This document shows positions 3,001 through 6,000 of a stretch of DNA of 18,396 nt, one piece after another. The stretch is from Armatimonadota bacterium (GTDB lineage Bacteria > Armatimonadota > Armatimonadia > Armatimonadales > Armatimonadaceae), in NCBI GenBank assembly GCA_043754515.1, contig JAYUUO010000028.1, forward strand, positions 1 to 18,396, in the 5' to 3' direction. How positions within the stretch are numbered: the stretch's first letter is position 1; each line of letters opens with the position of its first letter. The position numbers were made by a program.

Positions 3001-6000
3001 GATCGCGACGATCAAGAAGGACGCCGCCGACTTCCTGTGCGAGTCGGCGTTCGGAATGAGCTACGACGAGTGCAAGCACTACCTGACCGACCCGACCACG
3101 CTCTTCGACGGCGTTCTGAACAGCGCGGTGCAAAACGGCGCGGCGATCAACCGGGGCGCGATGGACACGCAACTTCACCTCCAGCCGGGCGGCAAGTTCG
3201 GCTACTTCGATGTCGAGCAGTTCCCGGCGGCATACAACACGGTGACGATGATCAAGCTCTCGCTCCTGCCGCCCGGCGAACTGCGGCGGCTGATGACCGA
3301 CCTGAACGGCGGCGAGGCGGTGTCGGTTCCGGCGGATCAGGGCGTCGCCGACAACATCGTGATGGGCTACACCAAGTCACTCGACGCCGCGAACCAATGG
3401 AAGGCGAACGCGCCGCGCATGTTGCTCGCTCGCAACGGCGTCTTCTACCGCAGTATCTTCATGGCGTTCCCCGGCGAGGCACCATACCCGAGCGTCACGA
3501 ATCTGAGCGTCGTGTCGAATCAGGCGAGCGGCGACCCGACATTCACGGCGAGTTTCGGCGTGGATAGAAGCGACCCGTTCGGGACCGAAGTCGGCACGGA
3601 CGCGGTGCTGGACGGCGATAACGTCGCGGTGCCACTGGACGCCGACTTCGTGGCGTTGCCGGGCGGCGCGACAACGGCGACGTTTCGCGGGCAGTTGCCC
3701 GGCGTGACACGCCCGACGGTGCTACACATCATCGCCACGAACGGCAACCGCGCCGAGGCCACGATAACGGTGAACCCCGCGAAGCTCGCGGGCTTGTTTG
3801 TGAACCGGACCGGCGGCTACTCGGGCGGCGGGGCGCAGTACACATACACGCAACCGAAGGACGTCTCCATCGCAGTCGGACTGGACGCGAACGCGCCTCT
3901 GGGCGGCGCGACAGTGACCCTTAATTCGGCGCAACCGAGCCTGCTGCCTGTCCCCGCGAACGTGGTGGTCGGGAACGACACGGCGACCGCGACGTTCAAG
4001 CCGGTGTTCGCCGAAGCCGCGCCGATGGATGCGACGGTAGCAGTGACGGCGACATACAACGGCGTTTCAAAGACGATCACGTTTAAAAAGGGCGGCGGCG
4101 GCGCGAGCATGACGGTGATGACGCAACTGCTACCGGAGTCATACGCGCAATCGGCGCGGATGCGCCCATCGGTCGCCCAGCGTAATCTGCGCGACACGCG
4201 GGGCAACAGCGCGATGACGGGCCTACGCGGGGTTCGGCAGTAGGCTTGTTCGCGATCACGCCGGGGCGCGGGTAATGCCCGCGCGCCCCGGCGATAGTTC
4301 TCCTTACAACTCGCGCTCGACCTTTACCACGACTCCCTGTATGCACACCCCCTCCGTCACAAGGATAGGCGCGTAAAGCGGGTTCTCACTAGACAGGAAG
4401 CGGTGGTCACCGGTCTCGGTCAGTCGCTTCACTACGGGACCGACCCCAGGTACCATCGCGACCACGATCTGCCCTACCCGCGCCGTCTCCTGGCGGCGAA
4501 CCAATAGCAGGTCGCCCTCCACAATCCCCGCGCCGATCATGCTATCGCCGATAACGCGGAGCAGAAAGTCAGCCCCGGTCGGCGGCGGGATTATCTCACG
4601 TTCCTCCGCATCGCCTTCTTCGGATGAGGATCGGATACCGTCCCCGGCGGCGACAACGCCCAGGATGGGCAGGAACACCGCGCCCGATCCGCCGATGTAC
4701 GCACGTTCCTCTCCCAAGCCGCCGATCCCCGTCAACCGTCGCAGAAGCCGCTCCTCGGGATCGTCCGGTAGCGGCTCGGCCGGAGCCGGTATAGGCTCGC
4801 TCACTCCCTGACCGGTGTAGTACTTGCGATTGAAGGCGTACACGGTCTTTTTCGGTCGGTTACCAGCCTGTAACATGCCGAACCCGGTAAGTTCCGCGCT
4901 GATCTGGTCGCACTTCGCGATCAGGATCGCCTCGGCGGTCATGGGGCGAACCGGGCTACCGAATTCGAGATCGTCGTGATGGGCCAGGATCGCATGCATG
5001 AGGGCCCGGCTCATTTCGCCCGGCATCCCATATTCTTTACACAACCATGTCAGATGGTTCGCACCGATGAAGATATGACCGAGCATATCCCCCGAGTTTG
5101 TGTATTCCCCCTGCTTCCAGACACATTGCTCTATCTCCCAAAGTTTGCCGAAGTCGTGTAGCAGCGCGGCGGTCACGAGCAGATCAGGATCCAGCAGTCC
5201 CGGATGCTGAACTATCTCGCGCACCGCGCTGTTCGCTACCTGAATAGAGTGACAGAGTAGTCCACCCCGGTAGGCGTGGTGTTTCTTTTTCGCGGCGGTC
5301 GCGTCAAGATACGCCTTTCGAAATTTCCCGTCAGAGCCGACCGTTTCGTCCAGAAGGCGCGCCAGGTTCGGCTGGCGCACCAACCCGATCAGACGGTCGA
5401 GGTTGCGCACCCAACCCGCGTGCTCCGGAGGGAGCGGCTTGACGAAAAAATCTTCGTTAGGCAGACCGTCTCCGAATGGATTCACCCCATCCACGGTTAC
5501 CTCCCCGCCGTATTTGCTTTCGCCCGGCGTCACCAGGCCAGAGATGCGCATCACAGGCGGACAGGATTCCCCGATTTCGCACACCAGCGACGCTTGCTCA
5601 GCGGACGGAGTCCACATCTTCGCCATGCGCGCCCCCGTCCGGTCGTAGACCTCCATCGTCAACTTCGGCCGCGTCGGATGGTTCGGGTCGTACGACACGT
5701 CCCGGATCGCCACCGGCTCATCCGTCACCCGCCCGCCGTTCGCGCCCCAATCAATAATCGCCATCTGTAAACCCCTTTCCCCTCCCCGTTATGCGTCGCA
5801 CCGGCGCAGGTGGCGGATGTACTTCGGGTTGCGGTACGTGGTGACGAGCACGCCGTCCCCGGCGACCACAACCACGGTGCCGTCCGTCTTCCGCACCGTC
5901 TCATCGCTCCAGGCGGTGCCCATTTGGCGTTGCGCCCGCGCCAACTGCTTACGCCCCAGGAAGAAAACGCGGTCGTCGCCCTGGTAGAAGCACTGCCCCC

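Follow-up and report, generated by a model that had tools for sequence, protein, structure and literature searches.

A YhaM-type nuclease fused to a LexA-type self-cleaving domain, suggesting an enzyme switched off, or possibly on, directly by the sensing of DNA damage

What does a LexA-type autopeptidase do when the rest of the protein is a nuclease? The question is raised by g00503 (P0001), a gene of an Armatimonadota bacterium found in a window of 18,396 bases, the whole stretch of DNA that was analysed. Bacillus subtilis YhaM is described as a hexameric 3' ssDNA nuclease regulated by LexA (PMC12107432), and its gene as a member of the LexA regulon that is induced in the SOS response (PMC2731908; PMC12107432). 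The Staphylococcus aureus enzyme is reported to trim RNA (PMC11347170). No description of a YhaM-S24 fusion was found in the literature covered, which was mostly outside subscription journals. The RecA-cleaved S24 proteins characterised there are repressors or the UmuD subunit; if an enzyme answered to RecA directly, the SOS paradigm would reach as far as catalytic control. The gene and its parts are as follows.

4304..5764, minus strand: the YhaM-S24 fusion gene g00503, 486 aa (ORF translation, Pfam, solved-structure alignment, AlphaFold2)
5477..5731, minus strand: OB barrel, aa 12-96, with W51 aligned to W51 of B. subtilis YhaM (alignment, AlphaFold2, PMC12107432)
4862..5422, minus strand: HD nuclease domain, aa 115-301, with ligands H172, H203, D204, H262, H263 and D286 (alignment, Foldseek, PMC12107432)
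4688..4804, minus strand: linker, aa 321-359, poorly ordered and poorly conserved (AlphaFold2, family alignment)
4643..4651, minus strand: cleavage site A372-A373/G374; the nuclease fragment would end in VAA (alignments)
4316..4678, minus strand: LexA-type S24 autopeptidase, aa 363-483 (Pfam, alignment, Foldseek)
4541-4543 and 4427-4429, minus strand: codons of S408 and K446 (alignments)

The reading frame is free of internal stops. Pfam places HD at aa 171-290 (48 bits) and Peptidase_S24 at aa 366-480 (80.7 bits), and the best solved relatives are B. subtilis YhaM (9h3f) for aa 30-296 (E 3e-23) and LexA for aa 365-482 (E 3e-12). The AlphaFold2 model (mean pLDDT 86.2, pTM 0.65) has strands at aa 12-96 that form an OB-like barrel, helices at 115-301 (HD) and a beta domain at 363-483 (S24), with pLDDT below 50 at aa 321-334, 348-359 and 379-383. 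In a Foldseek search with this model YhaM ranked first (target TM 0.89) and RecA-bound LexA second. The survey had described an OB barrel and HD nuclease joined through a linker to a complete S24 domain; these alignments and models bear that out, as does a contig that bridges the junction. The N-terminal winged-helix DNA-binding domain of LexA is absent from g00503 in both Pfam and the model. The protein misses the NCBIfam equivalog cut-off for YhaM (100.7 bits vs 460) and that of TIGR00498 for LexA (83.2 vs 110.95). A complex prediction between OB-HD (1-320) and S24 (360-486) scored 0.09 against a mark of 0.32 and carries no weight either way. Across the fusions, the linker has a mean pairwise identity of 0.18 compared with 0.42 for HD and S24, and the distance from D286 to G374 varies from 64 to 129 aa, the linker being highly variable in length and sequence.

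Sequence and model show that the active sites of g00503, that of the nuclease and that of the autopeptidase, are intact. The metal ligands of YhaM, as listed in PMC12107432, map through the 9h3f alignment onto H172, H203, D204, H262, H263 and D286; five of these are kept in 79/79 aligned members and H263 in 73/79. The survey's list of ligands was right in H203, D204, H262 and D286; its H162, H163, H230 and H257, which are conserved, are absent from the ligands given in PMC12107432, whose mapping adds H172 and H263. In the OB barrel, the tryptophan aligned directly with W51 of YhaM is kept in 63/79 members, and Y85, read across an alignment gap as the equivalent of YhaM Y76, is a tyrosine in 59/79. 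On the other side of the linker, A84-G85, S119 and K156 of Escherichia coli LexA correspond to A373-G374, S408 and K446. The invariance claimed for A372-A373-G374, S408 and K446 (with R447) holds in the 28-row alignment; in the wider family, 86 of the 90 non-redundant fusions retain all of AAG, Ser and Lys, whereas L137, P0131, P0138 and P0160 do not. Taken singly, Ser is kept in 90/90, Lys in 88/90 and AA before Gly in 87/90. The S24 domain of the fusions is under purifying selection, with dN/dS values of 0.05-0.34 that were below those of OB-HD in seven of the eight pairs giving a value (ten pairs tried). These residues support catalytic competence of both halves, as the survey had supposed.

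An assembly chimera was ruled out by an independent contig of 644 bases from a separate study, which covers 4359-5002, including the fusion junction, with three differences. The G+C content of the gene is 0.615, compared with 0.624 for the genome. Armatimonadota is indicated by the labels of homologs and by two clusters of the ESM Atlas with HD and S24 (51 and 61 members). In a scan of 401 genomes, in which three candidates per genome were scored and 359 weaker matches fell outside the list, the 53 genomes of the host order, counted from the rows, comprise 22 with a fused gene, 7 with an unfused one and 24 without a yhaM match to the g00503 query, among the matches listed; three other families contain at least six further carriers. 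A branch with support of 99 in the HD tree sets 29 fused and 7 unfused rows apart from 57 unfused ones (21 of the same phylum); this is a FastTree tree with a midpoint root and neither bootstrap nor one-clade test, built on the locus rows and P0001 only. FastTree trees of HD and S24 have broadly matching clades, the HD tree covering 83/90 fusions, without 7 short fragments, and the S24 tree needs two changes, which is compatible with a single origin. The HD tree fits one origin of the fusion within the phylum, which the homolog labels give as Armatimonadota, followed by at least four losses of S24.

The closest genomic relative is in another family, copies from the same genus group with a different subclade, and four relatives have other genes downstream of pfkB; the fusion gene therefore moves. 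The losses of S24 and the order's 24/53 genomes without a yhaM match indicate, therefore, that the function is dispensable. A full-length match to the fusion was found in none of 36 matching plasmid records and none of 26 phage records, and a scan of named genomes with generic motifs gave no fusion in 80 loci, among the matches listed. Other uncharacterised S24 fusions are present in domain databases. Among 33 matches to longer S24 proteins, a weak guide, there were only HD fusions and HTH/LexA proteins, and no other enzyme-S24 fusion. Some fusions bear the annotation of an ordinary LexA or an ordinary exoribonuclease, for example P0143 (HEY3268865.1), 481 aa, as 'transcriptional repressor LexA', a naming that makes them a database trap. 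An accidental fusion, or an assembly artefact, without functional coupling is a reading that repeated loss of S24 favours; it is largely refuted by the 90 non-redundant fusions, the selection on S24, the broad agreement of the HD and S24 trees and the bridging contig, and we consider it extremely improbable.

Whether RecA could drive the cut depends on surfaces known from LexA. There, a hydrophobic pocket of V79, V82, F111, L113, V146 and V153 is reported to take RecA F203 and the acidic patch D150-E152 to contact RecA; single charged contacts are described as less important, and cleavage driven by RecA proceeds without the N-terminal domain (PMC9926225; bioRxiv 10.1101/2023.10.30.564768). The pocket maps to L368, V371, F400, L402, V435 and P443 of g00503. 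Four pocket positions are hydrophobic in 78/90 fusions, compared with 74/74 LexAs, and the position of V79 in only 59/90. Where LexA has acidic residues g00503 has P439-G440-V441-G442, and the acidic patch is lost; such an acid-free loop occurs in 28/56 members of the g00503 clade, compared with 2/34 other fusions and 0/74 LexAs. T154 of LexA is also replaced. It is kept in 24/34 of the deeper-branching fusions, whose loops are more LexA-like. The host RecA has the L2 Phe, and the genome encodes a separate canonical LexA and ClpX, with g00503 as its sole yhaM match. Stimulation of g00503 cleavage by RecA is plausible from these residues. RecA dependence is likely, but less certain for the g00503 clade, which retains the pocket and lacks the acidic patch, than for the deeper branches. 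The same losses of the patch and T154 would suit a turnover timer in this clade, in which cleavage is independent of RecA and follows when the nuclease oligomerises on its substrate. Streptococcus mutans IrvR is reported to autocleave through N-terminal dimerisation without RecA (PMC7101444), and YhaM to assemble on ssDNA (PMC12107432). We think such a timer improbable, with the hydrophobic pocket retained, single charged contacts of lesser weight (PMC9926225; bioRxiv 10.1101/2023.10.30.564768) and deeper-branching relatives nearer to LexA in their loops.

The surroundings of the gene contain three further features.

5765..5788, minus strand: spacer of 24 bases with a purine-rich ribosome-binding site between g00504 and g00503 (read from the sequence)
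5789..6100, minus strand: g00504, a DUF4258-like small protein of 103 aa (structure match, relatives' loci)
4259..4293, no strand assigned: GC-rich hairpin between converging genes, a probable terminator (folding, -34.2 kcal/mol, z -3.86)

This arrangement, with g00504 lying 24 bases upstream, suggests a two-gene operon. No sigma-70 consensus promoter was seen within 4150-6400 of the window, and no RNA holder of the g00503 sequence is listed, the one run labelled RNA being probably DNA. The likeness of g00504 to DUF4258 comes from a structure match (TM 0.79), and one of its homologs matches DUF4258 weakly. Its 21 homologs occur in 19/71 genomes of the host order, 8 of them immediately next to a fused or unfused yhaM gene, with another 4 within 7 kb. 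Similar DUF4258 genes also adjoin sigma-factor-like modules without yhaM (L194, L195, L208). Elsewhere in the window, 1742-4243 (plus strand) encodes a protein of 833 aa whose one family match, to zinc phospholipase C, is weak (E 0.0014) and which has a probable Ig-like tail; the genes in 14080-14952 and 17015-18145 are lower in GC, match ankyrin, CPCC and Imm11 and resemble orphan immunity genes; and 16297-16944 (plus strand) encodes a 215-aa HD-like protein without a Pfam match, a homolog of which lies near the fusion in L127.

The survey saw no hint in the neighbours; the DUF4258-like gene upstream and the defence genes near 10/28 fused relatives do provide one. Seven of these ten settings are clear (BrxC; a BamHI-like RM; a ScaI-like RM; Cas6 twice; E2-ThiF-JAB; BREX with a CBASS cyclase) and three have an ECF-sigma, unknown-protein and M78-UvrD-nuclease module. 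The control, 1/20 unfused loci from other families with a defence neighbour, makes an asymmetric comparison, as the fused list includes hand-picked ORFs and non-independent kin and the control at most three automatically called genes per side. Neighbourhoods differ between relatives, and most of the remaining fused loci have housekeeping surroundings, in some cases syntenic among kin. Pfam found no defence system within the g00503 window and no umuC beside the gene, and PADLOC matched no system-specific model beyond a generic Cas3-HD. ComEC and DprA are both present and too widespread to weigh. In L143:570-9508 the fusion is flanked by a BREX end (PglZ, BrxL) on one side and a CBASS-type cyclase on the other. 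In the recurrent module a divergent ECF-like sigma factor is accompanied by an unknown protein of 220-250 aa and an M78(IrrE)-peptidase-UvrD-PD(D/E)XK helicase-nuclease; it adjoins the fusion in five relatives (L119, L124, L127, L141, L144), occurs elsewhere in the host genome (G000 C26:10093-15390, C299:1331-2666) and is possibly a second damage-sensing proteolytic switch.

Is the gene itself under LexA? A first motif search upstream of lexA genes found the strict box absent in most. An AAC-N4-GTT core is present upstream of 12/30 lexA genes of the phylum (L155-L184; shuffled mean 2), and the SOS box we infer from it is a candidate of the Gram-positive type, of which the lexA genes of the host and its family lack the strict form. 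A site resembling GAAC-N4-GTTC, with at most one mismatch in the 150 bases before the start, occurs in 8/28 fused genes, which represent about four lineages (shuffle mean 1.85, maximum 4 in 100), and in 0/28 unfused yhaM genes (0/21 never fused, 0/7 secondarily unfused), the pattern having been fixed after some sites were seen. Several sites lie at an extended -10 element. The same scan found none upstream of g00503 or its operon, and the top sites of the SOS matrix in its own genome gave no clean SOS regulon. The link to SOS that the survey drew is supported. Its proposal of control after translation rather than by a repressor is not right for the family: a LexA DNA-binding domain is found in 34/35 genomes searched, including all 28 fusion-bearing relatives, and the host has a normal LexA. 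LexA repression and self-cleavage may act as two layers together in the family. Many genomes of the sister family have two to four LexA-like genes. The host lexA (L001:496-1872) is divergent from a LysM membrane protein, which we take to resemble the YneA-type division inhibitors.

Our preferred reading, advanced tentatively, is a YhaM-type nuclease with its own RecA sensor, in which the sensor would act as an off switch and leave RecA-coated 3' ends alone. The fusion would be a 3'-to-5' single-strand exonuclease, probably DNA-preferring and probably a ring. On meeting RecA-coated ssDNA, its S24 domain would cut A373-G374. The nuclease fragment would then end in -VAA on a long loose linker, at the position of LexA's ClpXP degron, and be destroyed or released. 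Naked 3' single strands, such as repair debris or incoming foreign DNA, would be trimmed and RecA-loaded recombination substrates spared. Where the gene is also repressed by LexA, the enzyme would accumulate mainly as RecA filaments vanish, making this a recovery-phase or local off switch. In LexA-like proteins a C-degron next to the cleavage site is reported to send the N-terminal fragment to ClpXP (PMC5742171, citing Neher 2003). 'Off' is likelier than 'on' because the cut nuclease would carry -VAA at its end, the place at which this degron is exposed in LexA; by analogy, a latent degron points to the nuclease being destroyed after cleavage. The variable linker is, moreover, unlike that of a docked inhibitor. 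The retained dyad and cleavage site, the selection on S24, the RecA pocket with the L2 Phe of the host RecA, the dispensable N-terminal domain of LexA, the clpX gene, the properties of B. subtilis YhaM and the SOS-box-like sites of relatives also speak for this reading. Against this, AA belongs to the cleavage site and precedes Gly in 28/30 LexAs of the phylum, so that it may be a legacy of LexA and not a degron favoured by selection. The lost acidic patch, the replaced T154 and the unevenly kept V79 position also weigh against an off switch, as do the missing SOS box of g00503, the B. subtilis yhaM mutants that PMC12107432 describes as not damage-sensitive, the losses of S24 and the many genomes of the order without a yhaM match to this query. 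SOS induction combined with cleavage is, in addition, the logic of UmuD activation.

That logic could equally make an on switch. S24 dimers would block or cross-link the ring, and SOS induction with RecA-stimulated cleavage would free an active, short-lived nuclease, an effector of repair or defence. The SOS-box-like sites, several directly at extended -10 promoters, fit this, and so do the SOS induction of B. subtilis yhaM (PMC2731908), the harm to growth from excess YhaM that is recorded in the literature and the defence genes near relatives. We hold it to be unlikely, though a serious rival: the linker is variable and disordered, derivatives without S24 persist as ordinary genes, and UmuD retains its S24 half whereas here the enzyme half would bear the degron. 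The S24 domain might instead be mainly a tether to RecA filaments or a dimerisation module, with cleavage merely releasing the nuclease. L137, P0131 and P0138, in which the cleavage site is dead or missing and S24 still folded, would fit such a role; members of this kind are just 3-4/90, with Ser kept in all and Lys in nearly all, and we give the tether little credence.

A wider proposal, which we regard as doubtful, is that the LexA autopeptidase serves as a portable RecA-sensing degron on a 3' ssDNA exonuclease, which destroys itself at RecA filaments, thereby distinguishes the cell's own RecA-coated ssDNA in repair from naked ssDNA that is foreign or waste, and has been recruited to defence islands for this purpose. 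The enzyme would then contain within itself the unidentified 'release factor' proposed for B. subtilis YhaM (PMC12107432). With the fusion, the limits on YhaM activity on ssDNA could be tested in a single protein, and it would be a natural damage-triggered degradation tag.

Neither part of the fusion is new, and post-translational control by RecA has a precedent in UmuD. With YhaM/Cbf1 (B. subtilis 9h3f, S. aureus 9o7t), g00503 shares the OB and HD domains, the six listed metal ligands, the OB tryptophan and a connection to SOS, which for B. subtilis YhaM is regulation by LexA. It differs in a C-terminal linker and S24 domain of 170 aa, at about 30% identity, and the fusion is patchy, variable in position and outside any yhaO-yhaN operon. 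With LexA, and with CI, HdiR and IrvR, it shares the S24 fold, the Ala-Gly site, the Ser-Lys dyad, the pocket for the RecA phenylalanine and an N-terminal fragment ending in VAA. Unlike LexA, it has an enzyme in place of the DNA-binding head, a long linker and no acidic patch, and a canonical LexA is encoded elsewhere.

UmuD/UmuD', the Pol V subunit, is likewise an S24 protein that is not a repressor, cleaved after translation with RecA and repressed by LexA. UmuD has only a short arm and its S24 half is the active product; g00503 has no adjoining umuC. Finally, the fusion shares with protease-activated defence effectors and the CapP/IrrE-type sensors the logic that proteolysis gates a protein acting on nucleic acid, and several of its relatives sit with M78-peptidase helicases, BREX, CBASS or RM genes. 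In contrast to those systems, g00503 carries protease and effector in one chain, and the protease is an S24 domain.
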